Origin: Ilumatobacteraceae bacterium
Lineage (GTDB): Bacteria; Actinomycetota; Acidimicrobiia; Acidimicrobiales; Ilumatobacteraceae
Assembly (NCBI GenBank): GCA_044340485.1
Contig: JBIITN010000004.1
Coordinates: 28,357-92,356, forward strand
DNA length: 64,000 nt
Direction: 5' to 3'
This document shows, in pieces, positions 42,039 through 63,734 of this stretch. The translations under genes and the position numbers were made by a program. The notes under the pieces are model-generated. The model ran no database searches and was not told where the DNA came from. It saw only the letters and a program-made list of their open reading frames with translations. The stretch's first letter is position 1. Every line of letters starts with the position of its first letter.

Positions 42039-43964
42039 CTAACTCAGAGCGTTGTACTGCTCTGGTTTGATCTCTTGCACTTGTTGCCAGTACTCAAGCA
42101 GGCTAAACGGCCAGTTTTGTGCAACACGGTTGTATTCGTTGCGGTACCACGAATTCACTGTGGCAACTCCCCACACCATGCCGGCATTGCCCTGGTCGAC
42201 ACGCTCGTTATACGCGTTGTGCACTTCTTGCTTCACATCAAGGGCTTTCAAGTTGTTTCGCAATAAGTGTTCGACATAGCGCATCACATAGGTGACTTCG
42301 CATTCAGTGAAATAGATGATGCTTCCGTTTACAACGATGTTGGTGTTTGGACCGTAGAGAATGAAGAAGTTCGGGAACTTTGGAACTGTGACACCCATGA
42401 ATGCACGAGCGTCGCCTTTCCATTCGCGCTGCAATTCGACTCCATTCAAGCCGACAACTTCCATTGGCATAAGGAACTTTGATGGCTGGAAGCCAGTTGC
42501 GTAGATGATGATATCCACTTCACGAAGTACACCTTCCACGTCACGAACGCCGTTTTCCTCAATTGATGCGATTCGATCGGTTACAAGCGACACGTTGTCA
42601 CGCTTTAGCGTGCGCGCCCAAATGCCGTTATCAACCACAATTCGCTTCGATGCTGGCGGATACTGGGGAATCACTTTCTCGAGTAGATCAGGGCGGTCGC
42701 CGAATTGCTCAGTGAGGTAATCCACGAGCATCGCGCGCATTTCTTGGTTTGCCGGACTCACCGAAAGAGTTTGATCTTTCCAATTTGGGTCCACCTGACA
42801 TGCGGGCAACATGCCCTCACTTCCACGCCAGAACAGCCAGAAGCGATACCACTGGGCGTAGCCAGGAATATTTCCAAACAACCACTGTAAACCTGGTGCT
42901 ACTGACTCGTGGTACTCAGGAATTCCAAAGAACCAGTTTGGCGTGCGTTGATACAAATCAACATGAGCAGCTTGCGCCGCGACAGTTGGCATCAACTGAA
43001 CTGCGCTAGCAGCAGAACCTATGACTGCCACACGCTTTCCTTTGATGTCGACATCTGTGCGATAGCGAGCTGTATGCCAACTTTCGCCCTTGAACTTATC
43101 GATGCCAACAACATCTGGCATGTTGGGACGATTCAACTGACCGACAGCTGAGATGACTGCATCTGCTTCAAAATTCTTTTTCTGACCATTTGAAGTGGTC
43201 TCCACCGTCCACTTGCCTGATTTTTCATCAAATACACTGCGGTGTACTTCGGTATTGAAGTTGATCAATGGACGAATGCCGAATTTGTCTGCACAATTGC
43301 GGAAATAATCAAGCAAAGTTGCTTGTGCTGAGTAATAACCTGGCCAGTCATTGCGTTGTTCGAACGAGTAGCTATACATGTGGTTCGCGACATCTACGCG
43401 ACAACCTGGGTACACGTTCTCGAGCCATGTACCACCAACGTCGGCATTCTTATCGACTAATTCAACCTCGACACCTGCCTGACGCAAACGGTGAGCGGCA
43501 AGGATGCCAGACATTCCTGCACCGACTATCAACACCTTGAACGAGCGTCCGGGGGCAATGTCTTTCAAGTTCCACTGCGGAGCACGAAGATCATCGCCAG
43601 TCACTGACAACTCTTCTTTGAGCAACGGCAAATAGTTGGCGTCCATTGACGTTCCCGACGCCCATTCCATTGCTTTGCGCATGTCATCGTCCGAACGAGA
43701 CAACTCAACATTTGCACCGCTATCACGGAACTTCTTCAGCACAGCCAGGGCAATCGTGCGAATCTCGGCCTGCTGTTCGTCTGTCATTCCACCTTGTGGC
43801 ATTCCTACGAGTGCGGGGTCAGGTCGAAGGTGTGGCTTCAAGATCGTGTAGTTACCTGTGATATACGCAAGTGCCGGCAACAACGACGGACACGAGGCGT
43901 CGGCCAAGTGCTGCTCGAGTTCTGAGTCGGACACGTTTTTCGGGAATGAAACGGCTTTTGTCAT
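42039..43964 (-). CDS. Baeyer-Villiger monooxygenase, long HAPMO-like type with ~140-aa N-terminal extension
   Basis: IVGAGMSGI, GGTWLENVYPGCRVD (BVMO-specific motif), FKGESWHTARY (fingerprint with His retained, Trp to Tyr), VIGSAASAVQ. Start taken at ATG 43964. Confidence 0.85.
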   Translation of the reverse strand: MTKAVSFPKNVSDSELEQHLADASCPSLLPALAYITGNYTILKPHLRPDPALVGMPQGGMTDEQQAEIRTIALAVLKKFRDSGANVELSRSDDDMRKAMEWASGTSMDANYLPLLKEELSVTGDDLRAPQWNLKDIAPGRSFKVLIVGAGMSGILAAHRLRQAGVEVELVDKNADVGGTWLENVYPGCRVDVANHMYSYSFEQRNDWPGYYSAQATLLDYFRNCADKFGIRPLINFNTEVHRSVFDEKSGKWTVETTSNGQKKNFEADAVISAVGQLNRPNMPDVVGIDKFKGESWHTARYRTDVDIKGKRVAVIGSAASAVQLMPTVAAQAAHVDLYQRTPNWFFGIPEYHESVAPGLQWLFGNIPGYAQWYRFWLFWRGSEGMLPACQVDPNWKDQTLSVSPANQEMRAMLVDYLTEQFGDRPDLLEKVIPQYPPASKRIVVDNGIWARTLKRDNVSLVTDRIASIEENGVRDVEGVLREVDIIIYATGFQPSKFLMPMEVVGLNGVELQREWKGDARAFMGVTVPKFPNFFILYGPNTNIVVNGSIIYFTECEVTYVMRYVEHLLRNNLKALDVKQEVHNAYNERVDQGNAGMVWGVATVNSWYRNEYNRVAQNWPFSLLEYWQQVQEIKPEQYNALS

Positions 43965-44094
43965 ATACAAGTTTTTAGCGCATCCGACGCCCTCGTGGCG
44001 AGCGATTCGATCAATTAGATGAATGAAAAAGACACACCCTGGAGCAATTAGCCTGTGAGGCGACCCCGCCACCACGACTCACCAGAGGTTTTGC

Positions 44095-44490
44095 ATGTCC
44101 AGCACTGTTGTCCCCCACGTTGATTACCTTGTATTAGGCGACAATCCACACCTGGTCGCAAATGAATGCACCAACTGCTCTGCGCGTTTTTTCGGACGCC
44201 GCAACGCCTGTGCCAATTGCTCGGGAACTGACTTTCGTATCGTCCCCATAGCGACAGAAGGGGTCTTACGCTCATTCACGATCGTCACTTTTGCACCACC
44301 AGGAGTGCCTGTGCCATTTACGGCCGGAATCATCGACTGCGGCGGAACCAGTGTTCGTGCAAACATCATCAACGTAGATCCCACTCCAGACAAAGTCTCA
44401 CTTGGTATGAAAGTGAAACTCGCCACCTATTCGCTCGGAAAAGACGACAACGGCGTCGAAGCAATCGCTTTTGGCTACGAACCCGCGTGA
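44095..44490 (+). CDS. DUF35 Zn-ribbon/OB-fold protein
   Basis: CTNCSARFFGRRNACANCSG (CxxC-x10-CxxC) followed by an OB-fold-length segment. It sits immediately upstream of a thiolase, as is typical of DUF35. Confidence 0.8.
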   Translation: MSSTVVPHVDYLVLGDNPHLVANECTNCSARFFGRRNACANCSGTDFRIVPIATEGVLRSFTIVTFAPPGVPVPFTAGIIDCGGTSVRANIINVDPTPDKVSLGMKVKLATYSLGKDDNGVEAIAFGYEPA

Positions 44491-44559
44491 TCAAATAACA
44501 CACTCACCAACAACGACGACAAATTCGCACTTACATCCACTTACAACAGGAGAACGACC

Positions 44560-45759
44560 ATGGCTACAGAAGACATTTACATCCTCGGAATCAACATGAC
44601 AAAGTTTGGAAAACATCCAGACAAAGACACCGTTGACCTCGCTGCGCAAGCGGCCCTCGCGGCGCTCAAAGACGGCGGCGTCACAATGAAGGACATGGGC
44701 GTGATGGCGGCTGGTTGTCTATTCGGTGAAGGCAGTGTTGCACAGTCGATTCAAAAACAAATTGGCCAGACCGGAATTCCGGCATATAACGTGTCGAATG
44801 CTTGTGCCACAGGGGCAACTGCTTTACGCACAACGATTATGGCCATTAAAGCTGGCGAGTGCGACATGGGACTAGCCGTAGGAGTTGAAAAACTCGCTGG
44901 CGCTGGACTACTTGGCGCAAAGTCACGCACAGATGGAAAAGTGTTTGAGCCAAAGGGGCGCTTTGGTGCCGTAGTTCCCACCGACGGTCTTATTGGTACC
45001 GACAATATGCCAGGAACCTTCGCCCAGGTTGGCATGGAATATGGACACAAATACGGCGGTGCAACATTTGAGTTGTTCGCCAAGATTGCCGAGAAGAACC
45101 ATGCACACTCCACGCTAAATCCCCTTGCTGCCTACACCAAGCGAATGACGCTTGACGAGATCATGAACGACGTCATGATCGCCTACCCCAATACCCGTTC
45201 CATGTGTTCAGCAAACTGCGACGGTGCAGCCGCTGCGGTAGTGGTGAGCGGCAACAAATTGAAGACCCTCTCGAAGGAACAACAGCGCCGCGCGATCAAG
45301 GTGTCAGCATCGATCTTGACAAGCGATCCATATCAAGAAGCTTGCCAAGTGCTACCAGACGTCAACACCCTTACTCGCATTGCCGCTAAGCAAGCATATG
45401 AACAAGCTGGCGTTGGCCCAGAAGATCTGGACCTAGTAGAGCTACATGACTGCTTCGCAACTGCTGAACTTGTTCACTACGACAACTTGATGTTGTGCGA
45501 AGAAGGTGGTGCAGTCGACTTCTTTAACTCCGGCGCGACATGGCGCGATGGTCGTCTTCCTGTCAATGTCTCTGGTGGCCTTGAATCCAAGGGCCACCCC
45601 ATTGCGGCAACAGGCATCGCCAACATCTGGGAAGTGTGTCATCACCTCCGTGGCGAAGCGGGCGACCGCCAGATTGAAGGAGCAAAGGTCGGTATGGCTC
45701 ATGTCATTGGCCTCGGATCTGCGTGTGGCCTTCATATCTTGGAGAAATCAGCCCTCTAA
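44560..45759 (+). CDS. SCP-x/lipid-transfer-type thiolase family protein
   Basis: NVSNACATGATAL (active-site Cys context), GLESKGHPIAATG, HVIGLGSACG. Confidence 0.88.
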   Translation: MATEDIYILGINMTKFGKHPDKDTVDLAAQAALAALKDGGVTMKDMGVMAAGCLFGEGSVAQSIQKQIGQTGIPAYNVSNACATGATALRTTIMAIKAGECDMGLAVGVEKLAGAGLLGAKSRTDGKVFEPKGRFGAVVPTDGLIGTDNMPGTFAQVGMEYGHKYGGATFELFAKIAEKNHAHSTLNPLAAYTKRMTLDEIMNDVMIAYPNTRSMCSANCDGAAAAVVVSGNKLKTLSKEQQRRAIKVSASILTSDPYQEACQVLPDVNTLTRIAAKQAYEQAGVGPEDLDLVELHDCFATAELVHYDNLMLCEEGGAVDFFNSGATWRDGRLPVNVSGGLESKGHPIAATGIANIWEVCHHLRGEAGDRQIEGAKVGMAHVIGLGSACGLHILEKSAL

Positions 45760-45849: not shown

Positions 45850-45880
45850 TCCTGATCTTCTACTGAAGGGAACAACAACC

Positions 45881-46177: not shown

Positions 46178-46188
46178 AATAGTTCAAT

Positions 46189-46224
46189 CAAAAAAGGCGG
46201 CAGGGTCACCTGCCGCCTTTTTTA
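46189..46224. terminator. bidirectional rho-independent terminator
   Basis: AAAAAA-GGCGGCAGG-gtca-CCTGCCGCC-TTTTTT between the convergent EthD and livF genes. Confidence 0.85.
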
Positions 46225-46257: not shown

Positions 46258-46974
46258 CTAGCCACGAGACATGTACGACGCTTCGATCTCGTCGATGCGG
46301 CTTGCTAAATCGGTAGCCGTACCTGAGATCTCGATCACCCCACGACGCATCACGTACGCACGATCTGCATACTTCAATGCTTGGCGAACGTGTTGTTCAA
46401 CCAATACCACTGCAGTTCCACGCTGATCAGCTGCATCGCGCACCGCTTGCAAAAGACGTTGCACCACGATCGGAGCAAGACCCATCGACAATTCATCGGC
46501 CAAGAGCACCGAAGGTTTACGACCTAAGTTTCGAGCGAGACTAAGCATTTGCTGCTCACCACCAGAGAGCGAGCCTCCAGAGACATTGATGCGTTTTTCC
46601 AATTCGGGAAACAGTTGCAATGCTTCATCAATATCGGCGCCGGCCACGCGGAGATTCTCGCGAGTGGTAAGTCCCATGAAAACCGACTTCTCTTCGGTTA
46701 CAAAGGTCAGTCCGTTACGCGCACGCACGTGAAGTGGACCAGTGGCCACTTCACCGCCGATCACCACGTCGCCTTCCATTGGAGATAGTTCCCCCGCCAA
46801 GGTCAACATGGTGGTTGTCTTTCCCGCACCGTTAGGTCCAAGAATTGCCACTACTTCACCGGGGTTGGCTACAAGGTTGATCCCTTTGATTACTGCTTGT
46901 TGGCCACCGTATCCCGATGACAAGTTACGGGCTTCGATTCCCATCGAGCCAACTGCTGTTGCTGTGTCACTCAT
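46258..46974 (-). CDS. livF: branched-chain-amino-acid-type ABC transporter ATP-binding protein (LivF-like)
   Basis: GPNGAGKTT, LSGGEQQML, LLADE. Confidence 0.9.
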   Translation of the reverse strand: MSDTATAVGSMGIEARNLSSGYGGQQAVIKGINLVANPGEVVAILGPNGAGKTTTMLTLAGELSPMEGDVVIGGEVATGPLHVRARNGLTFVTEEKSVFMGLTTRENLRVAGADIDEALQLFPELEKRINVSGGSLSGGEQQMLSLARNLGRKPSVLLADELSMGLAPIVVQRLLQAVRDAADQRGTAVVLVEQHVRQALKYADRAYVMRRGVIEISGTATDLASRIDEIEASYMSRG

Positions 46975-49776: not shown

Positions 49777-49931
49777 ATTTCTTGAGACTACTCCACCGCA
49801 AGGCGTCTGTGAAACGTATCACACCGATAAAAACCCTCACCAACTTAAGACGACGCAACCGCCAAAAATCCTCACACGTGCGCACATTCACAACGCGTAC
49901 AGAAACTGCTCTGGCCCAGAGAATCAATAAG

Positions 49932-49968
49932 AAGAGGGGTTGTACCCGTTACAGGCACAACCCCTCTT
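49932..49968 (-). terminator. 12-bp perfect hairpin AAGAGGGGTTGT-n13-ACAACCCCTCTT
   Basis: Read from the sequence. On the minus strand it is followed by CTTATTGATT. Function (terminator or leader structure) is uncertain. Confidence 0.45.
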
Positions 49969-50074
49969 GCGCCCGGACTTCATTTCACACAGGGTGGCAT
50001 TTCATCCAACTACTCAGAGGCGCACATGGACTTGGTCAAGGACTCCGCACACTGCCCTGATCAGGTCTCGATTT

Positions 50075-50090
50075 CGTGACAGTGGTCACT
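50075..50090. promoter_or_regulatory. CGTGA-CAGTGG-TCACT, orphan CRP/FNR-geometry inverted repeat
   Basis: Read from the sequence. It lies between two hairpins in a 544-bp non-coding gap. Confidence 0.4.
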
Positions 50091-50154
50091 TCACATGGGC
50101 ACAGAGTAACACCCACGCCGCAACCCCCTGCACACGCGATCCACCCGAGATCGC

Positions 50155-50181
50155 AAAAACCCCACACCTTTCGGTGTGGGG
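50155..50181 (-). terminator. rho-independent terminator of binding-protein gene 1
   Basis: Minus strand CCCCACACC-gaaa-GGTGTGGGG followed by TTTTT, 53 nt after the stop at 50234. Confidence 0.8.
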
Positions 50182-50233: not shown

Positions 50234-51523
50234 TCAGTCAGCGTGATATGGCGTCATGTCGTATGTCTTGTCATCCATTGGTGACAACTTGCCACCAGAG
50301 AAGATGTCGTATGCGACTGAGCGGTTGAAGATACGTGGGAATGCTCCACCTTCACCAGTCCATGGTGATGTGAAGTCAAGGTCGCCCACCATGTTGTCCA
50401 TTGGCAGGTTGCTTGTTGCATTCGCAGCATCAATAAACGTGTTGTTGTTGACTTCAAGACCGTCTGCAATCATCTGCTCGACGATCTTGCGGAAGCCTTC
50501 AAAAGCTGCCCATGTTCCAAGACCGGCAAGTGAGTTCCAGTCGAGATCCGGTGCGTCGTACTTCTCAAGTGCTGCACGATAGTCATCCCACATTGGTCCA
50601 GCAATGTTCGGGTATGCGTTGATTGAAACGCCACCTTCTGTTTCTGCTGGGAATGCTTCGCCAACTTTTTCATTCAAGTTGCCCTGTGGACCGTAGAGAC
50701 GCTGAGTGCCACCTACTGCCTTCATTGCAGGAATGAATCCGAGCCACTGAATGTCACCCATGAAACCATGGATGCAGTCTGTGCCGCTTGCTGCCTTGGC
50801 AGCCAAAGCGCTGTAGTCAGAAGTGGTCAATGGGAACGTGAGGTACTTGACTTCGTTGGTGTAACCGAGCTTCTCGAAAGCAGCCTTGGTCTGACCAATG
50901 AAGTAATCCTGTGAACCGTTTTCACCAAATAAGAATGCAGGTGCTTCACAACCGTCTTCCGACATCTTGTACGCAGCACCAGCGTTGAACGAGAACACTG
51001 AACCCATGTTGAATGCGATTGGGCTTGAGAATTCCTTCGCCACAACTGGACAACATGCACCGAACCATGCGGTGTTTGACTCTTCCAACACTTCAATGAG
51101 CAAGCTCACGTCTGTGTCGTAACCGCCAACAAGTGCAATCGCACCAGCCTCAACAGCCTGACGAGCACACGCTGCGTCTTCGTTCGGGTCGGTCTTACCG
51201 TCACAGAATGTCATATCGAGCGGACGTCCGCCGATGCCACCATTGTCATTGATGTATTGCTCATAGATCTCAGCTGCAGCCTCGATGTTTGGATATGACT
51301 GAACTGATGAGTCAACAGTTGACACAACCCACACGACCAATGGATCACCAGTTGGTGCTGGTGCCGCTGAATCTGCAGTGGTGTCGTCGGTGCCGCCATC
51401 TGATGATGAATCATCATCACCACATGCGGCAAGTGTTAATGAACCGACAAGCGCAAGACTTGTCATGACCCGAAGCGTCCGGCGCGAACGCCCAGAGCCC
51501 GAGGTACGCGAAAACATCGACAT
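50234..51523 (-). CDS. ABC transporter substrate-binding lipoprotein, LivK/Peripla_BP_6-like (paralog 1)
   Basis: Start set at MSMFSRTS... by alignment with paralogs (MGMFAR...). Lipobox LTLAAC|GDDDSSS. Collinear with paralogs 2-4. Confidence 0.87.
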   Translation of the reverse strand: MSMFSRTSGSGRSRRTLRVMTSLALVGSLTLAACGDDDSSSDGGTDDTTADSAAPAPTGDPLVVWVVSTVDSSVQSYPNIEAAAEIYEQYINDNGGIGGRPLDMTFCDGKTDPNEDAACARQAVEAGAIALVGGYDTDVSLLIEVLEESNTAWFGACCPVVAKEFSSPIAFNMGSVFSFNAGAAYKMSEDGCEAPAFLFGENGSQDYFIGQTKAAFEKLGYTNEVKYLTFPLTTSDYSALAAKAASGTDCIHGFMGDIQWLGFIPAMKAVGGTQRLYGPQGNLNEKVGEAFPAETEGGVSINAYPNIAGPMWDDYRAALEKYDAPDLDWNSLAGLGTWAAFEGFRKIVEQMIADGLEVNNNTFIDAANATSNLPMDNMVGDLDFTSPWTGEGGAFPRIFNRSVAYDIFSGGKLSPMDDKTYDMTPYHAD

Positions 51524-51628: not shown

Positions 51629-51686
51629 CGAGGACACAATAATGAATCACAAATTCACTTGCGCTATGCAAATAAATCTGATGACG

Positions 51687-51723: not shown

Positions 51724-51736
51724 TGTACTCAGGCAG

Positions 51737-53029
51737 TTAGCCGGCGTGATATGGCGTCATGTCGTATGTCTTGTCATCCAATGGCGCCAACTTGCCGCCG
51801 GAGATGATGTCGAATGCAACGGAACGGTTGAAAATGCGTGGGAATGCCCCACCTTCACCATTCCATGGAGCAGTGAAGTCAAGATCGCCCACCATGTTGT
51901 CCATCTGCAAATTGTTTGTGGCACTCGCCGCTTCAATAAATGTGTCGCTGTTGACCTCAGTACCGTCAGCGATCATCTGCTCAACAATCTTGCGGAAACC
52001 TTCAAAGGCTGCCCAAGTACCAAGACCAGCAAGTGAATTCCAGTCAAGATCAGGAGCGTTATAGCGCTCGAGTGCGTCACGGTAGTCATCCCACATCGGA
52101 CCAGCAATGTTCGGGTATGCGTTGATCACAACGCCACCCTCGGTTTCTGCTGGGAACGCTTCGGCTACTTTGCCGTTGAGATTTCCCTGCGGACCATAGA
52201 GTCGCTGCGTGCCGCCCACTGCCTTCATCGCAGGAATGAAACCAAGCCACTGAATGTCACCCATGAAACCGTGAATACAGTCAGTTCCACTAGCTGCCTT
52301 GGCGGCCAAAGCGCTGTAGTCAGAGATCGTCAACGGATATGTGAGGTACTTCACTTCGTTTGTAAAACCGAGTTTCTCGAAAGCAGCCTTAGTTTGGCCA
52401 ATGAAGTAATCCTGCGATCCATTATCGCCGTAGATGAAGGCGGGTGCTTCGCAACCATCTTCAATCATTTTGAACGCTGCACCAGCATTAAACGAAAAAG
52501 TTGCACCCATGTTAAATGCATTTGCACTCGTGAATTCTTTCGCCACACTCGGACAACACGCTCCGAACCAAGCAACATTCTCTGATTCAAGTACTTCAAT
52601 TAACAGACCCACATCAACGTCAAAACCACCGACGAGAGCGATCGCTCCGTCATCGACAGCCTTTCGTGCACATGCAGCATCTTCATTGGGATCGGCCTTA
52701 CCGTCACAGAAAGTGACGTCTAAAGGACGACCACTAATCCCACCCTTATCGTTGATGTATTGCTCATAAATTTCAGCCGCGGCCTCAATGTTTGGATACG
52801 ACGCGATAGATGAATCGACTGTCGTAACAACCCAAACGTTGAGCGCTTCACCAGTGGGTGTCGCACCACCAGTTTCTGCTGTGGTGTCATCTGATGAGTC
52901 ACCGCTACTTGATGAATCATCATCACCACATGCAGCCAGTGCAAGCGCACCAACGAGAGCCAAACTGACTCCCACTCGAATACCGCGTCGCCGACTATTG
53001 GCAGACGAAGTCCGTGCAAACATCCCCAT
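51737..53029 (-). CDS. ABC transporter substrate-binding lipoprotein (paralog 2)
   Basis: 430 aa; lipobox LALAAC|GDDDSSSS. Confidence 0.9.
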   Translation of the reverse strand: MGMFARTSSANSRRRGIRVGVSLALVGALALAACGDDDSSSSGDSSDDTTAETGGATPTGEALNVWVVTTVDSSIASYPNIEAAAEIYEQYINDKGGISGRPLDVTFCDGKADPNEDAACARKAVDDGAIALVGGFDVDVGLLIEVLESENVAWFGACCPSVAKEFTSANAFNMGATFSFNAGAAFKMIEDGCEAPAFIYGDNGSQDYFIGQTKAAFEKLGFTNEVKYLTYPLTISDYSALAAKAASGTDCIHGFMGDIQWLGFIPAMKAVGGTQRLYGPQGNLNGKVAEAFPAETEGGVVINAYPNIAGPMWDDYRDALERYNAPDLDWNSLAGLGTWAAFEGFRKIVEQMIADGTEVNSDTFIEAASATNNLQMDNMVGDLDFTAPWNGEGGAFPRIFNRSVAFDIISGGKLAPLDDKTYDMTPYHAG

Positions 53030-53219: not shown

Positions 53220-54512
53220 CTACTCTGGGTGGTATGCCGTCATGTCGTAGGTCTTGTCATCCATTGGTGACAGCTTTCCGCCAGAGAACACATCAAAGGC
53301 GACTGATCGGTTGAAAATACGTGGGAAAGCCCCACCTTCAGCAGCCCACGGGGTGGTGAAATCAATGTCACCCACCATGGAATCCATTTGAAGGTTGCTT
53401 GTGGCATTTGCAGCCTCAATGAATGTGTCGTTGTTTACTTCAACTCCATCAGCAATCATCTGCTCCACAATCTTACGGAAGCCCTCGAACGCTGCCCATG
53501 TACCAAGACCAGCAAGTGAGTTCCAGTCAAGATCAGGAGCGTTATAGGTCTCAAGAGCTGCACGATAGTCATCCCACATCGGACCTGCGATGTTCGGGTA
53601 TGCGTTGATCACAACGCCACCTTCAGTCTCAGTCGGGAATGCCTCGCCAACCTTTTCATTGAAGTTGCCCTGAACTCCATAGAGTTTTTGTGTGAAGCCC
53701 ACCGATTTCAATGCAGGCACAAACGCCATCCACTGAATGTCACCGAGTGCTCCATAAATGCAGTCTGAACCACTTGTTGCTTTCGCTGCCACGGCACTGA
53801 AATCTGAGATTGTTGCTGGGACGGTAATGAAATCGAGTCCACCGGAGTACTCCAACTGTTCAAACGCGTACTTTGCCTGCGCCACTGAAATGTCCTGGCT
53901 TCCATTTTCTAGGTAGATGATCTTTACATTCTTGCAACCATCTTGTGTCATCTTGTATGCGGCACCTTGGTTAAATGAGAAAGTCGAACCCATGTTGAAT
54001 GCAATCGGGCTCGAAAACTCTTTTGCGACAACCGGACAACATGCACCAAACCATGCAGTATTTTCAGCCTCAAGTACCTCCATCATCAAACTGACGTCGA
54101 GATCGAAACCACCGACAAGAGCAATTGCTCCATCGTCGACTGCTTTACGCGCACAGGCGGCGTCCTCGTTCGGGTCAGTTTTGCCATCACAAAAAGTGAC
54201 TTCAAGCGGACGACCGCCGATGCCGCCTGCATCGTTGATGTACTGCTCATAAATGTCTGCAGCGGCTTCAATGTTTGGATACGACAACAATGACGAATCA
54301 ACTGTTGTGACTACCCACACGTTTAGTGGTTCACCCGTGGGTGCCGCACCGCCAGTTTCTGCAGTGGTGTCATCTGATGAGTCACCGCTACTTGATGAAT
54401 CATCATCACCGCAAGCCGCCAGTGCCAATGCACCAACGAGAGCCAAACTGACTCCTACTCGAATACTGCGCCGCCTCTTTATGGCCGACGACTTCCGTGC
54501 AAACATCCCCAT
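53220..54512 (-). CDS. ABC transporter substrate-binding lipoprotein (paralog 3, divergent central block)
   Basis: 430 aa with the same leader as paralog 2. Its central segment QDGCKNVKIIYLENGSQDISVAQAKYAFEQLEYSGGLDFITVPATISDF differs from paralogs 1 and 2. Confidence 0.9.
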   Translation of the reverse strand: MGMFARKSSAIKRRRSIRVGVSLALVGALALAACGDDDSSSSGDSSDDTTAETGGAAPTGEPLNVWVVTTVDSSLLSYPNIEAAADIYEQYINDAGGIGGRPLEVTFCDGKTDPNEDAACARKAVDDGAIALVGGFDLDVSLMMEVLEAENTAWFGACCPVVAKEFSSPIAFNMGSTFSFNQGAAYKMTQDGCKNVKIIYLENGSQDISVAQAKYAFEQLEYSGGLDFITVPATISDFSAVAAKATSGSDCIYGALGDIQWMAFVPALKSVGFTQKLYGVQGNFNEKVGEAFPTETEGGVVINAYPNIAGPMWDDYRAALETYNAPDLDWNSLAGLGTWAAFEGFRKIVEQMIADGVEVNNDTFIEAANATSNLQMDSMVGDIDFTTPWAAEGGAFPRIFNRSVAFDVFSGGKLSPMDDKTYDMTAYHPE

Positions 54513-54585: not shown

Positions 54586-54623
54586 ATGAAACATACCACC
54601 AGTGTTGGGCCCCGATGAACGAA

Positions 54624-54655
54624 CATGGGATCCGAGTCGATACCCGGATCCCATG
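54624..54655 (-). terminator. hairpin CATGGGATCCG-n10-CGGATCCCATG after paralog 4
   Basis: Identical copy of 53141-53172. Confidence 0.6.
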
Positions 54656-54702
54656 TCGTCAGTGAGTTGTCGCGTTCAACAACTGGGGAGAATTTTCCAG
54701 AC

Positions 54703-55995
54703 TTACTCGGCGTGATACTGCGTCATGTCGTAAGTCTTGTCATCCATTGGAGTCAACTTGCCACCAGAAATAATGTCAAAAGCAACTGAACGATTGAAGA
54801 TTCGTGGGAAGGCCCCGCCTTCACCAGCCCACGGTGTAGTGAAGTCGAGATCGCCGACCATGGAATCCATTTGAAGGTTGCTTGTGGCATTTGCAGCCTC
54901 AATGAATGTGTCGTTGTTTACTTCAAGTCCATCAGCAATCATTTTCTCGACAATCTTTCGAAATCCCTCGAAGGCTGCCCACGTACCTAAACCAGCAAGC
55001 GAGTTCCAGTCAAGGTCCGGAGCGTTGTACTTCTCAAGAGCCGCGCGATAGTCATCCCACATCGGACCGGCAATGTTCGGGTACGCGTTGATCACAACGC
55101 CACCTTCAGTCTCTGCGGGGAATGCTTCTGCGACTTTGACGTTGAGATTTCCTTGAGGACCGTACAAACGTTGAGTGCCACCGACAGATTTCAAGGCAGG
55201 TATGAATCCCAACCACTGGATGTCGCCCATAAAACCGTGAATGCAATCTGAGCCATCACCTGCTTTTGCAGCGATCGCGCTGTAATCGGATGCGTTGAGT
55301 GGAACCATCACGTACTTTGGCACAGATGGATCTCCCCCGACTGCTTCCCATGCGGCCTGAGTCTGACCTTGGAAATAGTCATAGGTGGAACCTTCACCAA
55401 TAATAAATGCTGGATTTGTGCACCCGTCTTCTTTCATCTTCCATGCTGCTGCAACGTTGAAAGAGAATACTGCGCCCATGTTGAATGCAATTGGGCTTGA
55501 AAACTCTTTTGCGACAACCGGACAACATGCACCGAACCATGCGGTGTTTTCAGATTCCAACACTTCGATAAGCAAGCTCACATCAACATCAAAGCCTCCA
55601 ACTAATGCGATCGCGCCCGCGTCTACTGCTTTACGCGCACACGCTGCGTCTTCATTTGGATCTGCTTTTCCATCGCAAAATGTGACATCTACCGGACGTC
55701 CGCCGATGCCACCTTTGTCGTTGATGTACTGCTCATAAATATCTGCTGCAGCTTCAATGTTTGGATATGAAGAGATCGAAGAATCAACAGTTGAAACAAC
55801 CCAAACAACCAATGGTTCTCCAGTCGGCGCTGGTGCCGCTGAATCTATTGTTGTGTCATCTGTACCGCCGTCAGATGATGAATCATCATCCCCACACGCA
55901 GCAAGTGATAACGCACCCACCAACGCCAGGCTGATGCCCACGCGCAAACCACGTCTCTTCGTGCTTTGCGACGTTGTACCTTTACACATCCTCAT
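54703..55995 (-). CDS. ABC transporter substrate-binding lipoprotein (paralog 4, divergent central block)
   Basis: Start set at MRMCKGTT... by paralog alignment. Lipobox LSLAAC|GDDDSSS. Its central block EDGCTNPAFIIGEGSTYDYFQGQTQAAWEAVGGDPSVPKYVMVPLNASDY is unique. Confidence 0.87.
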   Translation of the reverse strand: MRMCKGTTSQSTKRRGLRVGISLALVGALSLAACGDDDSSSDGGTDDTTIDSAAPAPTGEPLVVWVVSTVDSSISSYPNIEAAADIYEQYINDKGGIGGRPVDVTFCDGKADPNEDAACARKAVDAGAIALVGGFDVDVSLLIEVLESENTAWFGACCPVVAKEFSSPIAFNMGAVFSFNVAAAWKMKEDGCTNPAFIIGEGSTYDYFQGQTQAAWEAVGGDPSVPKYVMVPLNASDYSAIAAKAGDGSDCIHGFMGDIQWLGFIPALKSVGGTQRLYGPQGNLNVKVAEAFPAETEGGVVINAYPNIAGPMWDDYRAALEKYNAPDLDWNSLAGLGTWAAFEGFRKIVEKMIADGLEVNNDTFIEAANATSNLQMDSMVGDLDFTTPWAGEGGAFPRIFNRSVAFDIISGGKLTPMDDKTYDMTQYHAE

Positions 55996-56123: not shown

Positions 56124-57734
56124 TCAGGAGATGGAAAAGCCCTTATAACCCTCAGCGGCCACTTGGTTGCACAGCTCTCGATACGGCCCAACGCCACCAA
56201 GGTATGGCAGGAACACACGTGGCTTACCAGGAACATTGGCACCCATGTACCACGAGTTCGCCAGCGGATACAACGTCATGTTTCCAACTTCGGTGCTGTG
56301 TGCCACCCATTCATCTTGAGCCTGTTGGGTTGCCTCAATGACGTGTTGATCTTTATCACGCATTGCGACGAAGAGATCCGTCAACCAATCAACATGTTGC
56401 TCAATTGACACCATCATGTTCGACAGCACCGATGGACTTTGCGGACCAGTGATGGTGTACATGTTCGGGAAGTTCGCAATAGCAAGTCCTAAATACGTGG
56501 TGGGACCATCTTTCCATTGATCAGACAGTTTGATGCCATGTTTTCCACGGATATCGATTTTCAACAGCGAACCAGTCATTGCATCGAAACCAGTTGCGTA
56601 CACAATGGCATCGAACTCATACTGTTCGTCGGTGGTGTTGATTCCAACTGGCGTGATCTCAGTAATAGGCGTTTTGCGCAAATTAACCAATCGAACATGA
56701 TCAAGATTGAATGTTGCGTAATAGTCAGTATCGACACACGGACGCTTTGTGCCAAGCGGATGATCGTACGGACACAACGCTTCGGCCACCTCTTGATCTT
56801 TGACAATCGTTCGGATCTTGTCGCGAGCGAAATCAGCAACAACGTCATTTGCTTTTTTGTTGATCAGGATGTCTTCAAATGATGCCAGGAATCGAGCAAA
56901 GTCTGCAGTTTCCCAACTGTCTTCAAGAATCTGCTGTTGCGTTTTTTCGTCTACTGAAAACATCGGTATCGGTGTAAAGCTGATTGGGACTCCACCACGT
57001 GATTCTTTCGCACGCTGACGATACTCGCGATACTGAGACTTCACTTCTGTCACTTCTTCACTGGTCAATGCGCGATTACCTGCAGGCACGGAAAAATTCG
57101 GAGTGCGTTGAAACACTGTTAACTGCTTTGCTTGTTTGGCGATGAGCGGTATTGACTGAATAGCTGACGAACCAGTACCAATTACTGCGACACGTTTTCC
57201 TGTGAAGTCCACTCCTTCATGGGGCCATTTTGATGTTTGATATGTAGCGCCTTTATACGTGTCGATGCCAGGAATCTCTGGCAATTTTGGCGTTGACAAA
57301 GTGCCTACAGCCAACACCAAATGCTGTGTGTCAATGACATCACCGCTATCAGTGGTGATGGTCCAATGCGTATTGACTTCATCCCAGATAGCCGACGTGA
57401 TGGCAGTGTTAAATTGCATGTCAGGCCACAGGTTGTAACGATCCGCAACATGATTTGCATATTTTAAGATTTCTGGCTGGGTGGCATACTTTTCCGTCCA
57501 CTCCCACTCTTGCTCCAACTCGGGATCAAAAGAGTACGAATAGTCAAGTGAACGCACATCACAACGTGCACCTGGATAACGATTCCAATACCACGTACCA
57601 CCAACTCCGCTTGCTTTGTCAAAGACTCGGACGTTAAATCCCAGTCCACGTAACCGATGTAACAAGTACATTCCGGCAAAGCCTGCACCGACGACAACAA
57701 TGTCGCGTGTTGATGTCACTGATGAGTCAGCCAT
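56124..57734 (-). CDS. type I Baeyer-Villiger monooxygenase (paralog A)
   Basis: VVGAGFAGM, GGTWYWNRYPGARCD, VIGTGSSAIQ. The fingerprint is YKGATYQTSKWP, with Gln at the canonical His. Confidence 0.9.
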   Translation of the reverse strand: MADSSVTSTRDIVVVGAGFAGMYLLHRLRGLGFNVRVFDKASGVGGTWYWNRYPGARCDVRSLDYSYSFDPELEQEWEWTEKYATQPEILKYANHVADRYNLWPDMQFNTAITSAIWDEVNTHWTITTDSGDVIDTQHLVLAVGTLSTPKLPEIPGIDTYKGATYQTSKWPHEGVDFTGKRVAVIGTGSSAIQSIPLIAKQAKQLTVFQRTPNFSVPAGNRALTSEEVTEVKSQYREYRQRAKESRGGVPISFTPIPMFSVDEKTQQQILEDSWETADFARFLASFEDILINKKANDVVADFARDKIRTIVKDQEVAEALCPYDHPLGTKRPCVDTDYYATFNLDHVRLVNLRKTPITEITPVGINTTDEQYEFDAIVYATGFDAMTGSLLKIDIRGKHGIKLSDQWKDGPTTYLGLAIANFPNMYTITGPQSPSVLSNMMVSIEQHVDWLTDLFVAMRDKDQHVIEATQQAQDEWVAHSTEVGNMTLYPLANSWYMGANVPGKPRVFLPYLGGVGPYRELCNQVAAEGYKGFSIS

Positions 57735-59425: not shown

Positions 59426-59543
59426 ACCCCCTATGGCTCTTTGACGGCCGCGTCGGACCGATCAAACCTTCACCACCCCCCAGTGGCGAATTGAGATCAA
59501 CGTATCACATATTTGCACAGCACAATGATCGGACAGACAGCAC

Positions 59544-59573
59544 AGAGCCGGCGTCCCAGGAGACGCCGGCTCT
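59544..59573 (-). terminator. hairpin AGAGCCGGCGTC-n6-GACGCCGGCTCT after esterase 1
   Basis: 12-bp perfect GC-rich stem 39 nt past the stop. No clear U-tract. Confidence 0.5.
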
Positions 59574-59611
59574 GATTGAACTGATATGTACGTTGATTAA
59601 CGCGTAGAGAT

Positions 59612-60562
59612 CTACGGGCGAGGTGGCCACACGTTCACGGAATAGCGCAAATGTCGGCCAGCGTCGTCATAGGCAGCGGTTGCTGATGGAAACACTCCGC
59701 CCATTTGAAAAAACCCGTGAATCTGACCATCAAAACGAGTGAGGTGGACATCTACGCCATGTTCTTTCAATTTGTTGGCATACGCCTCGCCCTCATCGCG
59801 CAAGGGATCGAATTCCGCGGTGTACACAATTGCCGGCGGCAGACCTTTTAAGTCTTTTGCTTGCAACGGACTGGCGTACGGGTTCTTGCCATCTGCTGGG
59901 CTCGCCAAGTAGTGATCCCAGAACCATTCCATCATGTCTTTGGTAAGTAGGTAGTTGTCGCCATTGTCCTTGTAGGAGACGGTGTCGTAGGCGTGATTTG
60001 TCACTGGGTACACAAGCAATTGCAACTGGATATTTGAAAGACCCTCATCACGAGCCTTCAATGCAACAGCAGCAGCAAGATTTCCTCCTGCAGAGTCTCC
60101 ACCCACGGCAAGCTTCATCGGATCAACTTTGACTGATTCTCCATTTTCAGCAAACCATTTAAATACTGCGTAGCAATCGTTGAATGGAGTCGGGAACTTA
60201 TGTTCTGGAGATAAACGATATTCCACATTTGCAACACGACAACCACCGCGCGATGCAATTGCATTACATGCGGGAGACAGACTTGCACGATCGCCTATCA
60301 CCCAACCACCACCGTGGTAATAAATGAGGCAACCTGATACTCCGTAAAGCCCACGAGGCGTAATCAAAGTAACCAGAATTTCTCCACCTTCAACAGGAAT
60401 GGAGATCTCTTGTGTCTCTGCAACTGGTTCAGCTTCTCCAGCTAGAGCTGCGAAACCTTCTGCTGCTTGTCTCGCTTCATTTGGAGCCAACGTGTTCAAC
60501 GGTGGCGCACCCGCTTCTTCCATTTGTTGAAGTAGTCCCGCTGCGATTGGATCTAATGGCAT
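59612..60562 (-). CDS. alpha/beta hydrolase, HSL-family (family IV) esterase (paralog 1)
   Basis: YYHGGGW oxyanion motif, the GDSAGG nucleophile elbow, DPLRDEG, and GQIHGFF. Confidence 0.9.
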   Translation of the reverse strand: MPLDPIAAGLLQQMEEAGAPPLNTLAPNEARQAAEGFAALAGEAEPVAETQEISIPVEGGEILVTLITPRGLYGVSGCLIYYHGGGWVIGDRASLSPACNAIASRGGCRVANVEYRLSPEHKFPTPFNDCYAVFKWFAENGESVKVDPMKLAVGGDSAGGNLAAAVALKARDEGLSNIQLQLLVYPVTNHAYDTVSYKDNGDNYLLTKDMMEWFWDHYLASPADGKNPYASPLQAKDLKGLPPAIVYTAEFDPLRDEGEAYANKLKEHGVDVHLTRFDGQIHGFFQMGGVFPSATAAYDDAGRHLRYSVNVWPPRP

Positions 60563-60647: not shown

Positions 60648-60827
60648 TGTCGTCTCCCCTACTTCCCGACCGTAGCAAGAATTTTCACACCCAAATTCCA
60701 CGACGCCCGCCCCACAAATACCCATTGGTAGAAACAACGTGGTGGGTGAAGTCATCGGAAAATGACAAGTGGCCGACACACCGAAAGGCATGCCGACCAC
60801 TGTTGTCAATTATCTGTGTGTACAGAA

Positions 60828-61760
60828 TCAGGCAAGCGCCTTCTTCATGTGGTTGGCAGCATCTGCATATGCATCAGACGCTGCTGGGAACACGCCACCC
60901 ATCTGGAAGAACGCATGGATCTGTCCGTCATACCGCTTTGAGTGAACGAGGAGACCAGCATCTTTCAGACGTGCAGCATATGCTTCGCCTTCGTCACGCA
61001 ATGGATCGAACTCTGCGGTATACACCACTGCTGGAGCAATGCCTTTCACGTCGGCAGCTTGCAATGGGCTCACGTATGGGTTCTTACTATCTGCTGGGCT
61101 CGCCAAGTAATGATTCCAGAACCATTCCATCATCGAACGGGTGAGCAAATAGTTTTCGCCATTGTCTTTGTATGACTGTGTTCCGTATGAGTGGTCTGTC
61201 ACTGGATACACCAACAACTGCAATTTCAGTCCCGACACCTTTTCGTCACGGGCTTTCAGCGCAACTGCTGCGGCAAGGTTTCCACCAGCTGAGTCTCCGC
61301 CAACAGCAAGCTTGGTGGGGTCAACACCCACTGATGCGCCATTTTGTGTGAACCACTTGAAAACTGCGTAGCAATCATCGAATGGAGCGGGGAACTTATG
61401 CTCTGGTGCCAATCGGTATTCCACGTTTGCAACGCGCATTCCCGAGCGGGCAGCAAGTTGATGACATGCCGGATCAAGCGTGCTGCGGTCACCGATAACC
61501 CAACCACCACCGTGGTAGTAAATCAAACAACCAGAGGTTGCTGCTGCACCCTTTGGAGTGATCAAGGTAACGAGGATGTCGCCACCAGGACCAGGAATCT
61601 TCAATTCCTTTGTCTCTTGCACTTCTTCAAGTTCGCCAGCAAGAGCGGCGAAACCGGCAGCGGCTTCACGAGCTTCTGGTGGTGCAAGGGAATCAATCGG
61701 CGGTGCGCCTGCTTCTTCCATTTGCTGAAGCAGTCCGGCTGCGATGGGATCTAATGGCAT
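60828..61760 (-). CDS. alpha/beta hydrolase, HSL-family esterase (paralog 2)
   Basis: YYHGGGW, GDSAGG, DPLRDEG, GQIHAFF. The first 21 residues are identical to esterase 1. Confidence 0.9.
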   Translation of the reverse strand: MPLDPIAAGLLQQMEEAGAPPIDSLAPPEAREAAAGFAALAGELEEVQETKELKIPGPGGDILVTLITPKGAAATSGCLIYYHGGGWVIGDRSTLDPACHQLAARSGMRVANVEYRLAPEHKFPAPFDDCYAVFKWFTQNGASVGVDPTKLAVGGDSAGGNLAAAVALKARDEKVSGLKLQLLVYPVTDHSYGTQSYKDNGENYLLTRSMMEWFWNHYLASPADSKNPYVSPLQAADVKGIAPAVVYTAEFDPLRDEGEAYAARLKDAGLLVHSKRYDGQIHAFFQMGGVFPAASDAYADAANHMKKALA

Positions 61761-61811: not shown

Positions 61812-61828
61812 TTGCACGTTACGTGCAA
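61812..61828. promoter_or_regulatory. palindrome TTGCACGT-t-ACGTGCAA upstream of esterase 2
   Basis: Read from the sequence, 52-68 nt upstream of ATG 61760. Confidence 0.4.
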
Positions 61829-62015
61829 GAAATGATTTGTGCTGCATCAAGTAACAGCAATAAGTAATTACGAAACGTAATTCAAACGAATCCTGCTCGT
61901 TGCATGCACACTTGCGCACACAACGAGCAGGTCGTCTGAGGTTAAATCAGCGAAATGTTTAATTTCGCATATGAACTAAGTATCAATGAAAAGCTGTTGT
62001 AGCTACAGGCTTCGC

Positions 62016-63626
62016 TCAGGAAAGAACAAAGCCGGGGTAACCAGCAGCTGCGATTTCATCACACTTTTCACGGTATGGACCTACACCGCCGAGGTATGGC
62101 AAGAACACGCGTGGCTTGCCAGGAACGTTGGCACCCATGTACCAAGAGTTCGCCAGCGGATACAACGTTGCGTTTCCAACCTCTGCGTTGTGTGCCACCC
62201 ACTCGTCCTGAGCTGACTGAGTTGCCTCAATGACCTTCTGGCCTTTGTCGCGCATTGTGACGAACAAATCAGTGACCCAGTCGATGTGCTGCTCGATCGA
62301 CACCATCATGTTCGAAAGCACTGAAGGGCTTTGCGGACCGGTGATGGTGTACATGTTCGGGAAGTTTGCAACCGAGATACCAAGGTATGTGGTTGGGCCG
62401 TCTTCCCACTGATCTGACAACTTACGACCACCCTTACCGCGGATGTCAATCTTCAAGAGTGATCCAGTCATTGCGTCGAAGCCAGTTGCATACACAATGG
62501 CATCAAACTCGAACTGCTCATCAGTTGTATTGATGCCGTTAGGTGTGATTTCAGTGATTGGTGTCTTCCGCAAGTTCACCAAACGCACATGCTCAAGGTT
62601 GTACATGGCGTAGTAGTTGGTATCGAGGCAAGGACGCTTGGTGCCAACTGGGTGATCGTATGGGCAAAGCGCCTCAGCAACTTCTTGATCTTTCACGATC
62701 GTGCGAATCTTGTCACGAATGAAGTCAGCTGCTGTGTCGTTTGCTTTCTTGTCGATGAGGATGTCGCTGTATGCGCCAATCAAACCAACAAGGTCACCAC
62801 GATCCCAACCGCCTTGGAACGTCTTACGACGATCTTCTTCGGTCACGCTGAATGCGGGAACTTGTTCAAAGTTAATTGGCTGACCAAAGAACGATGTTTG
62901 CTGGGCGATGCGGTAGTTGCGGTAGTCACTCTTTACTTCGTGAATCTCTTCCTTGGTGAGTGCACGGTTACCAGCAGGCATCGAGAAGTTCGGTGTGCGC
63001 TGGAAAACGGTCATCTGCTTTGCTTGTGCAGCAATAAGTGGGGCCGACTGGATAGCCGATGAACCAGTTCCGATCAATGCAACACGCTTGCCGGTGAAGT
63101 CAACACCTTCGTGTGGCCACAGTGATGTTTGGTAGGTCTCACCCTTGTAGGACTGGATACCTGGAATTTCTGGCAACTTAGGAGTCGACAAAGTACCTAC
63201 TGCCAACACGAAGTGCTGTGCATCAATAACATCACCCTGGTCGGTCTCGATTGTCCAACGCTGACGTGAATCGTCCCATGTGGCAGATGTGATTGCAGTG
63301 TTGAACTGGATGTCGGTACGCAAGTTGTAACGATCTGCTACGTGGTTTGCATACTTCAAGATTTCTGGTTGTGGTGCGAACTTCTCGGTCCACTCCCACT
63401 CTTGTTCGAGTTCTGGGTCGAAAGAGTATGAGTAATCAAGCGAACGAATATCACAACGTGCACCGGGATAACGGTTCCAGTACCACGTGCCACCTACACC
63501 AGCTGCCTTGTCATATACGCGAGCTGAAAAACCAAGGCCACGCATACGATGCAACAAGTACATTCCAGCAAAGCCTGCTCCGACGATGAAAACATCGTGA
63601 GAAGCTGTGAACTTCTTATCTGACAT
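62016..63626 (-). CDS. type I Baeyer-Villiger monooxygenase (paralog C)
   Basis: Start at MSDKKF... by paralog alignment. Same motifs as paralogs A and B; the fingerprint is YKGETYQTSLWP. Confidence 0.9.
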   Translation of the reverse strand: MSDKKFTASHDVFIVGAGFAGMYLLHRMRGLGFSARVYDKAAGVGGTWYWNRYPGARCDIRSLDYSYSFDPELEQEWEWTEKFAPQPEILKYANHVADRYNLRTDIQFNTAITSATWDDSRQRWTIETDQGDVIDAQHFVLAVGTLSTPKLPEIPGIQSYKGETYQTSLWPHEGVDFTGKRVALIGTGSSAIQSAPLIAAQAKQMTVFQRTPNFSMPAGNRALTKEEIHEVKSDYRNYRIAQQTSFFGQPINFEQVPAFSVTEEDRRKTFQGGWDRGDLVGLIGAYSDILIDKKANDTAADFIRDKIRTIVKDQEVAEALCPYDHPVGTKRPCLDTNYYAMYNLEHVRLVNLRKTPITEITPNGINTTDEQFEFDAIVYATGFDAMTGSLLKIDIRGKGGRKLSDQWEDGPTTYLGISVANFPNMYTITGPQSPSVLSNMMVSIEQHIDWVTDLFVTMRDKGQKVIEATQSAQDEWVAHNAEVGNATLYPLANSWYMGANVPGKPRVFLPYLGGVGPYREKCDEIAAAGYPGFVLS

Positions 63627-63734
63627 TGATCTACCCCCCAGATAGATAAGCCTGCTCCCTACAGTGGTCACAGGTTGTTGGTTTGAACCGTAGCAATTTT
63701 GCTTGTACTGGTCAAACGGAAGCGTCAGAAATAT

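Follow-up and report, generated by a model that had tools for sequence, protein, structure and literature searches.

What links four Baeyer-Villiger monooxygenases (BVMOs) and two esterases to an ATP-binding cassette (ABC) importer with four receptors of its own? The question is raised by a gene array at 42039-63626 of a 64,000-nucleotide stretch, hereafter the window, from an Ilumatobacteraceae bacterium (assembly GCA_044340485.1, contig JBIITN010000004.1, positions 28,357 to 92,356 of the forward strand). Gene identities were taken from the open reading frame listing combined with Pfam and NCBIfam scans, and every gene class named in the initial annotation was recovered where it had been placed: one long and three short BVMOs, two HSL-family esterases, four substrate-binding proteins (SBPs), a LivH-LivM-LivG fusion (LivHMG) with LivF, and a unit of DUF35 protein, thiolase and EthD protein. 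Read along the minus strand (63626 to 46258), the genes are, in order, BVMO C, esterase 2, esterase 1, BVMO B, BVMO A, SBP4 to SBP1, LivH-LivM-LivG and LivF (Table 1). We estimate, with a probability of roughly 60%, that this array represents a catabolic cassette, conserved in Acidimicrobiia, which couples uptake to Baeyer-Villiger oxidation and is directed at a class of ketones or secondary alcohols.

The initial annotation had proposed that the oxygenases, the esterases and the multi-receptor importer form a single system and had named synteny as a test, which came out in favor of the proposal from both sides. A species-level scan with an alignment of 24 SBPs, one genome per species, returned 35 loci, all of them from Actinomycetota (Acidimicrobiia or others), among them the cultured Desertimonas flava. 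Neighboring genes in these loci were located by tblastn with the window proteins, and the SBP-LivHMG-LivF core, present in 33 loci, defines the denominator used here; gene calls in related loci of high G+C content relied on a third-position G+C filter together with precomputed calls, longest-frame calls having produced spurious antisense reading frames. A BVMO lay no more than 5.8 kb from the core in 25 of the 33 loci, a raw count. The median distance to the core was 1.5 kb for the short type, that is, one gene away, and 2.2 kb for the long type, whose orthologs (53-55% identity) adjoined the transporter in 9/33 loci. Additionally, an HSL esterase was present in 16 loci at a median of 0.6 kb from the core, an NDMA-type alcohol dehydrogenase in 12 (TIGR03989, 541.7 bits vs a cut-off of 440), and an EthD gene in seven. 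Of the loci whose flanks reach 5 kb or more on both sides, 13 of 16 contained a BVMO, and five of the eight loci lacking one were truncated contigs.

Gene order and orientation differed among the loci, at SBP identities of 45-65%, and the linkage persisted; survival of linkage through rearrangement is what selection for linkage would predict. Annotated examples illustrate this range: a BVMO-esterase-SBP (three copies)-LivHMG-LivF series with gaps of 27-220 bp; a tandem MarR gene, esterase-SBP-LivHMG-LivF, BVMO, alcohol dehydrogenase and long BVMO on another contig; and a Desertimonas flava-like contig on which a long BVMO is divergent from SBP-LivHMG-LivF. Other genes found in related loci encode a tandem MarR regulator, which was common, HpaB-like and luciferase-like oxygenases, and an acyl-CoA ligase. 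The reciprocal search began with five homologs of BVMO C (63-70% identity) picked solely for their long contigs. A full SBP-LivHMG-LivF set stood beside three of them (L052, L053 and L055), an esterase beside four, and an NDMA-type alcohol dehydrogenase occurred in three of the five loci. The remaining candidate for transporter linkage, L051, was not counted, its Peripla_BP_6 protein having no detectable similarity to the SBP family of the window.

The cassette, as we read it, would operate in the following steps. Lipoprotein receptors from a small, divergent branch of the Peripla_BP_6/HAAT proteins would capture a small organic compound and hand it to the ABC importer formed by LivH-LivM-LivG and LivF. 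In the cytoplasm, a type I BVMO, STMO/PAMO-like, HAPMO-like or both, would insert oxygen beside a carbonyl, and an HSL-type esterase would hydrolyze the ester or lactone so formed to give alcohol and acid. The NDMA-type alcohol dehydrogenase encoded in many of the genomes would either generate the ketone from a secondary alcohol or oxidize the alcohol product. In the lineage of the window, old tandem duplications would have given four receptors, three short BVMOs and two esterases, and the amplified copies most likely widen the range of related substrates served by one permease. This scheme takes the transported ligand to be the BVMO substrate or its direct precursor, and the reaction to be a Baeyer-Villiger oxidation. 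Signal peptide prediction found none in the BVMOs and esterases, and their substrate must therefore be imported.

The short BVMOs A, B and C share 75-82% pairwise protein identity. Their Rossmann motifs read GAGFAG and GTGSSA, and those of the long enzyme GAGMSG, with the second site aligned at GSAASA. The BVMO-specific motif GGxWxxxxYPGxxxD is present in all four proteins, as GGTWYWNRYPGARCD in the three short enzymes and as GGTWLENVYPGCRVD in the long one. The short type matched steroid monooxygenase (STMO; 4ap1) over residues 6-535 (E = 2e-185), the Arg of GTKR aligning with the Arg of the STMO motif GAKR, which is equivalent to PAMO R337; the PAMO-type active-site loop SPSVLSNM and the Asp of YPGARCD are likewise kept. 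The long BVMO, which carries FMO-like and Pyr_redox_3 domains in Pfam, matched PAMO at E = 3e-61 in two separate stretches. Its open frame extends to a GTG at 44075, beyond the start at 43964 chosen by gene callers, and its homologs number in the thousands at 53-60% identity and a length of ~640 aa, many of them labeled 4-hydroxyacetophenone monooxygenase by JGI. On these sequence features, we assume that the window BVMOs convert ketones to esters.

The esterases are consistent with such a product. In both, HGGG at residue 83, GDSAG at 155, DPL at 252 and HGF or HAF at 282 complete the catalytic set of HSL family IV. Esterase 1, the only one of the pair covered by the NCBIfam scan, has Est8 and EST2 as its best solved relatives. 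A fusion protein of 867 aa (P0353; L056, 6925-9528) consists of an HSL-type esterase domain and a BVMO with 64% identity to BVMO C, and its 13-kb contig contained no transporter.

The four receptors share 76-83% mutual protein identity. Each begins with a lipoprotein signal peptide, which combines an n-region rich in Arg with the lipobox LAAC, and continues into a Ser- and Asp-rich linker; they are predicted to be surface-anchored receptors of a Gram-positive cell. The Arg-rich n-region (e.g., SRRRGIRV, within the N-terminal 35 residues) may represent a twin-arginine (Tat) lipoprotein signal. The importer has the composition that defines HAAT or LivHMGF systems, with two BPD_transp_2 stretches, two ABC ATPases, one of them bearing the BCA_ABC_TP_C tail, and a Peripla_BP_6 receptor; LivF is 62-76% identical across related loci, and the LivH-LivM-LivG fusion of ~900 aa recurs in 26 of them. 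The label "LivK-type" given to the receptors at the outset holds at the level of the superfamily and no further, phmmer relating them to LivJ at E ~1e-5. The family is small: of 1.84 billion representatives searched, 503 clusters matched at E <= 1e-30. An AlphaFold2 model of SBP2 (pLDDT 84), compared with the PDB by Foldseek, retrieved cluster-B SBPs exclusively, with a clear fold and at most 19% identity to every solved structure.

The binding site was mapped by aligning SBP2 to LivJ (1z15) at ~18% identity, and invariance was judged from the alignment of 24 SBPs. LivJ Y18 corresponds to the invariant Y78 of SBP2, S79 to D137, Y150 to D206, Y202 to the nearly invariant D258, and E226 to the invariant Q281. 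The A100-T102 loop is replaced by a two-residue insertion carrying the invariant C158-C159-P160, and a second alignment, to Atu2422, supported the same insertion. Residues S79, A100-T102, Y202 and E226 of LivJ are those that we take to anchor the alpha-amino and alpha-carboxylate groups of its ligand, with Glu226 binding the ammonium group. The mapping, a lead only at 18% identity, speaks against a site for amino acids and, less strongly, against one for a simple carboxylate. The earlier description of the receptors as amino-acid-type is not supported, given their low identity to all solved structures and the invariant Gln at the position of LivJ Glu226. Six Cys residues are invariant in all 24 aligned SBPs, including the vicinal pair of FGACCP (window 52553-52558, SBP2 C158-C159), which may form a vicinal disulfide in the putative binding site.

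Several observations, given in this and the next two paragraphs together with the alternative explanations, weigh against the cassette reading. Three full-length loci (L015, L019 and L036) have the transporter and no BVMO within 10 kb, and one BVMO-chosen locus (L054) holds a BVMO-esterase pair without a nearby transporter. Moreover, hairpins of -25 to -33 kcal/mol lie 3' of BVMO C, esterase 2, esterase 1, SBP4, SBP3, SBP2, SBP1 and LivF (61890-61934, 60762-60806, 59540-59584, 54616-54660, 53133-53177, 51683-51727 and 49931-49975, besides the one at LivF), a strong hairpin being absent only between BVMO B, BVMO A and SBP4. Most lack a U tract, and those 3' of SBP4 and SBP3, each 45 nt long, have the same sequence. 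The spacer between SBP1 and the permease gene contains a canonical terminator, CCCCACACC-GAAA-GGTGTGGGG-TTTTT at 50181-50154, and a second hairpin at 49975-49931 with a 17-bp stem (-29.8 kcal/mol). With hairpins after most genes and terminators in this spacer, the eleven minus-strand genes are probably not transcribed as one simple operon. A likely result of the terminators is that the receptors would be expressed above the permease. Neither a riboswitch nor a leader emerged from a permissive Rfam scan of 42-64 kb, in which the matches to CsrC, the L20 leader and Rev39 were mis-scored terminator hairpins (the spurious CsrC covers the EthD/LivF hairpin on both strands), and a sigma-70 promoter scan gave 9 sites vs 16.9 in shuffled sequence, fewer than chance. 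Separate units of this kind, loci in which transporter or oxygenase stands without the other, and membership of the transporter in the HAAT (Liv) superfamily would suit an arrangement without a common substrate, with the importer taking up amino acids or some other nutrient and the genes lying together through common regulation or history. We consider this quite unlikely, since the association spans 25 of 33 loci at 45-65% SBP identity and in varied order and orientation and was recovered from the BVMO side as well, the SBP family is small and far from LivJ, an invariant Gln stands where LivJ has its ammonium-binding Glu, and the A100-T102 loop is remodeled.

The activity assumed for the oxygenases is also open to challenge from their fingerprint. 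The canonical FxGxxxHxxxW[P/D] is altered in all four window BVMOs, the other tested BVMO features being kept. The short enzymes have [F/Y]KGxxYQTSxWP, with Gln replacing His (YKGATYQTSKWP in BVMO A, window 57222-57257), and the long enzyme has the variant FKGESWHTARYR, with Y-R where W-P/D is expected. The Gln also occurs in L007-L011, L023, L044, L053 and L054, with Met in L031 and Phe in L034 and L051, and the His is retained in more distant orthologs from soil Acidimicrobiia. We read this deviation as the mark of a variant clade, and not as evidence that these proteins fall outside the type I BVMOs; motif-based BVMO searches would miss the Gln-for-His clade. Type I BVMOs are known for sulfoxidation and N-oxidation, and the flavoenzymes might accordingly act mainly as heteroatom (N or S) or aldehyde oxygenases on imported amines or organosulfur compounds, with the esterases acting on other compounds. 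The replacement of His by Gln, Met or Phe within the clade would fit such a shift, as would the Asp-rich putative pocket of the receptors, which could tentatively suit a cationic ligand. It nevertheless appears very unlikely to us, as the motif GGxWxxxxYPGxxxD, the catalytic Arg and the PAMO-type loop are intact, and the tight, conserved pairing with HSL esterases, together with the esterase-BVMO fusion, is what an ester-forming reaction predicts.

A further difficulty concerns the ligand. Small neutral ketones should pass through membranes unaided, and the presence of an ABC importer suggests a polar or charged ligand, possibly not the ketone itself. The Foldseek matches of the SBP2 model were about equal for binders of fatty acids, amino acids (Leu), aromatic acids (4-hydroxybenzoate) and urea, and the ligand cannot be inferred from the SBP sequence or from the predicted structure. 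The importer might thus carry a precursor, such as a secondary alcohol, a diol, a hydroxy-ketone or an ester conjugate, perhaps freed outside the cell by the TAP-like hydrolase encoded next to the array, from which the NDMA-type alcohol dehydrogenase would make the ketone inside. That dehydrogenase lies near the transporter in 12/33 loci and in three of the five BVMO-chosen loci, the gene just upstream of BVMO C encodes a secreted lipoprotein hydrolase, and the occurrence of Asp or Gln at several LivJ contact positions, in a low-confidence alignment, would suit a hydroxylated or neutral ligand over a carboxylate. We nonetheless regard this version as unlikely: the window array itself contains no alcohol dehydrogenase, the TAP-like hydrolase was not beside the cassette in the other lineages examined, and the pocket mapping depends on an alignment of 18% identity. 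The hydrolase gene is on the same strand as BVMO C and 108 bp upstream of it; its translation in the window ends in LVILAYVPASQE before the stop, as in L047 (8030-9892), where the gene continues; the N-terminus reads ...AISAC. It matched none of the NCBIfam models, and it is possible that this lipoprotein is an extracellular member of the system.

Table 1. Features of the array and its immediate surroundings, in window coordinates.
Feature	Coordinates	Strand	Supporting details
Long HAPMO-like BVMO	42039..43964	-	641 aa from gene callers; N-terminal extension of ~140 aa
DUF35 protein, OB fold and zinc ribbon	44095..44490	+	PF01796, E = 1.3e-10; PF12172; divergent from long BVMO
SCP2-type thiolase	44560..45759	+	Thiolase_C_1, E = 8e-37
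EthD-family protein, 98 aa	45881..46177	+	TIGR02118, 59.5 bits vs cut-off 30.5; convergent with LivF
Bidirectional terminator hairpin between EthD and LivF	46180..46224	.	-26.6 kcal/mol; flanked by A run and T run
LivF-type ABC ATPase	46258..46974	-	ABC_tran, E = 9e-27
LivH-LivM-LivG fusion, 900 aa	46987..49689	-	Two BPD_transp_2 stretches, ABC_tran, BCA_ABC_TP_C; LivG match, E = 9e-64
Terminator-like hairpin pair, SBP1-permease spacer (544 bp)	49931..50181	-	
SBP1 lipoprotein	50234..51523	-	Peripla_BP_6; lipobox LAAC
SBP2 lipoprotein	51737..53029	-	Peripla_BP_6, E = 7e-29; lipobox LAAC
SBP3 lipoprotein, most divergent paralog	53220..54512	-	Peripla_BP_6; 76-79% identity to the other three; lipobox LAAC
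SBP4 lipoprotein	54703..55995	-	Peripla_BP_6; lipobox LAAC
Short BVMO A (STMO/PAMO-like), 536 aa	56124..57734	-	Steroid monooxygenase 4ap1, E = 2e-185; PAMO 1w4x
Short BVMO B, 536 aa	57809..59425	-	Pfam; 82% identity to BVMO A
HSL-family esterase 1	59612..60562	-	Abhydrolase_3, E = 1e-77; LipP1-family HSL (NCBIfam), 371.5 bits vs cut-off 350
HSL-family esterase 2	60828..61760	-	Abhydrolase_3, E = 6e-77; 75% identity to esterase 1
Short BVMO C, 536 aa	62016..63626	-	Pfam
3' end of lipoprotein alpha/beta hydrolase, 620-641 aa	63735..64000	-	Abhydrolase_1 and Abhydrolase_4; TAP-like

How the cassette of the window came to hold so many copies can be read in part from the paralogs themselves. Their DNA identity is 72-79% over full gene lengths, far above chance. 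Among the SBP genes, identity at third codon positions is 0.33-0.55 over most of the length and 0.57-0.70 in the last third, at a protein identity of ~80%; these values agree with ancient duplications maintained by purifying selection, and the 3' ends may have undergone some gene conversion. Divergence is concentrated in one segment of each family: residues 181-240 of the SBPs (53-57% identity vs 78-96% over the remaining mature protein) and residues 241-300 of the short BVMOs (43-50% vs 69-96% elsewhere), from which we infer that the paralogs differ in specificity. In a neighbor-joining tree, the four SBPs of the window and their orthologs in L007 and L008 formed one clade, and the three tandem SBPs of a second freshwater Acidimicrobiia lineage (L009, 8678-12902; L044, 10001-14474) a separate one; receptor amplification was therefore independent, occurring at least twice. 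SBP copy number is three in L007 and L008 and four in the window and L001. The initial annotation had called the module triplicated, and of this the amplification stands, with actual counts of three short BVMOs, two esterases and four SBPs that vary between near-identical strains. L008 (CAYVAV010000017.1) is titled "uncultured Bifidobacterium sp."; its locus shows 84-98% protein identity to the Ilumatobacteraceae cassette, and the label is probably wrong.

The composition and surroundings of the locus speak against horizontal acquisition. The exact LivHMG and BVMO C proteins each occurred on 16 independent metagenome contigs (JGI, ENA), and the species-representative scan found a 98%-identical locus in the metagenome-assembled genome Ilumatobacteraceae bacterium ME2006-07-18D11_3300042451_group2_bin17, which identifies the source of the window as a freshwater Ilumatobacteraceae population of Lake Mendota. 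The G+C content of the array is 0.48-0.52 vs 0.50-0.54 in the rest of the window, and a tRNA scan revealed none. Across contigs the flanks are constant, with the Mo-hydroxylase cluster on one side and, on the other, the TAP-like hydrolase followed by the housekeeping genes SecG, tpi, pgk, gap and uvrC. Because of the flat G+C content, the lack of tRNA genes and the constant flanks, the word "island" applied earlier to the array can denote a functional cluster only, and not foreign DNA. A search of window 1-42000 for further paralogs of the array genes found none. The Mo-hydroxylase cluster (window 35083-42035, plus strand) adjoins the array and converges on the long BVMO gene. Besides a three-subunit Mo-hydroxylase (FAD_binding_5, Fer2_2, MoCoBD), its genes specify an M20 peptidase, a CN-hydrolase and an amidohydrolase, and the cluster is probably a separate pathway for the breakdown of an N-heterocycle or amide.

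The genes divergent from the long BVMO had been proposed as a source of ketones. The DUF35 protein is free-standing (131 aa), with an OB_ChsH2_C match and the zinc-ribbon motifs CTNC and CANC, and its gene ends 69 bp upstream of that for the thiolase. The thiolase retains NACATG at 80, with the nucleophilic Cys, HDCF at 296 and GHP at 345, which together make up the full SCP2-thiolase set; its best NCBIfam match, "lipid-transfer protein" PRK08256, fell below the cut-off. In the Ltp2-ChsH2 retro-aldolase of steroid side-chain cleavage, the Ltp2 aldolase lacks the nucleophilic Cys and its DUF35 partner is a domain of a MaoC hydratase, whereas the window thiolase keeps the catalytic Cys and its DUF35 partner stands alone. 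The pair thus looks thiolytic rather than ketone-releasing. It occurred, among the examined loci, only in the closest relatives L007 and L008, so that we rejected it as a core component, and the complete catalytic set together with this narrow distribution argues against the proposed role. The EthD protein had no Pfam match at E <= 0.001. Its gene lies within 100 bp of LivF, in convergent orientation, in L007-L011 and L044, which represent two freshwater lineages, and this conserved arrangement suggests that EthD may be part of the system.

BVMOs are heavily studied biocatalysts, yet to our knowledge the natural substrates and roles of most of them, PAMO included, are unknown; the linkage to receptors makes this question testable through the ligands of the four binding proteins. 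A wider interpretation is possible, though we find it doubtful: the array would be the first recognized SBP-dependent ABC uptake system for BVMO substrates, by which freshwater and soil Acidimicrobiia scavenge a family of small carbonyl or hydroxy-carbonyl compounds at very low concentration, with receptor, oxygenase and esterase amplified in parallel in separate freshwater lineages and the substrate range thereby widened. Candidate ligands would then include ketones of photochemical or biological origin, hydroxy-ketones, and the alicyclic or aryl ketones of dissolved organic matter, and through the receptors the substrates that PAMO/STMO-type and HAPMO-type BVMOs use in nature would become directly accessible to experiment. 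Abundant lake Ilumatobacteraceae, tracked for years in the Lake Mendota time series, are among the carriers, and the parallel amplification of receptors in two freshwater lineages suggests that the substrate class matters for lake carbon turnover.

Among known systems, the importer most resembles LivJ/LivK-LivHMGF of Escherichia coli, a member of the same superfamily with Peripla_BP_6 receptors, two permease domains and two ATPases. LivJ and LivK share LivHMGF, and several receptors on one permease is therefore a known arrangement. The window system differs in that its receptors are lipoproteins of a Gram-positive cell, at most 19% identical to LivJ-type structures, with an invariant Gln for Glu226 and the Cys-Cys-Pro insertion, and in that permeases and ATPase are fused into one protein (900 aa). 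The HAAT SBPs of Rhodopseudomonas palustris for lignin-derived aromatic acids (RPA0668, PDB 4evq) and a "fatty acid" SBP of Thermomonospora curvata (4n03) were among the best structural matches and show that Peripla_BP_6 receptors can serve the catabolism of organic compounds other than amino acids; however, their identity to SBP2 is 13-18%, their ligands are carboxylates, and no BVMO link has been described for them. The closest solved relatives of the short BVMOs are STMO of Rhodococcus rhodochrous (PDB 4aos/4ap1) and phenylacetone monooxygenase (PAMO) of Thermobifida fusca (1w4x), at E ~1e-185 over the full length. Domain order, the catalytic Arg and the loop SPS(A/V)LSNM are shared, whereas the window enzymes have Gln in the fingerprint, a highly diverged segment at residues 241-300 among paralogs, and a transporter in their genomic context.

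BVMO-esterase pairs are well known from acmAB (Gordonia sp. TY-5, acetone), mekAB (Pseudomonas veronii MEK700), hapE/hapD (Pseudomonas fluorescens ACB) and subterminal alkane oxidation. The window array shares with them a type I BVMO beside an ester hydrolase, often with an alcohol dehydrogenase, and the adjacency is conserved, an adjacent pair being present in four of the five BVMO-chosen loci. It differs in that the esterases belong to HSL family IV, two BVMO types occur together, genes are amplified in tandem and an importer is linked; we know of no system of the acmAB, mekAB or hapED type that is linked to an SBP-dependent ABC importer. Full-text searches for BVMOs with an ABC transporter or SBP, or in Acidimicrobiia, yielded no description of such coupling, only general pathway accounts, and the route from ketone to ester to alcohol and acid has been described (PMC13609444). 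In SAR202 (Chloroflexota), expansions of monooxygenase paralogs have been proposed to oxidize recalcitrant dissolved organic matter, likewise in aquatic bacteria and with paralog-rich Baeyer-Villiger-type oxygenases accompanied by dehydrogenases, esterases or lactonases (PMC5395668). The SAR202 enzymes are of type II, FMN- or F420-dependent and luciferase-like, and are scattered over the genome, ABC transporters being mentioned zero times in that account (PMC5395668), whereas those of the window are type I FAD/NADPH BVMOs gathered in a single array with a physically linked importer. The enzymology itself is thus known, and the new element is the conserved physical coupling in Acidimicrobiia, combined with receptors from a divergent family, the joint presence of two BVMO types and amplification particular to certain lineages.

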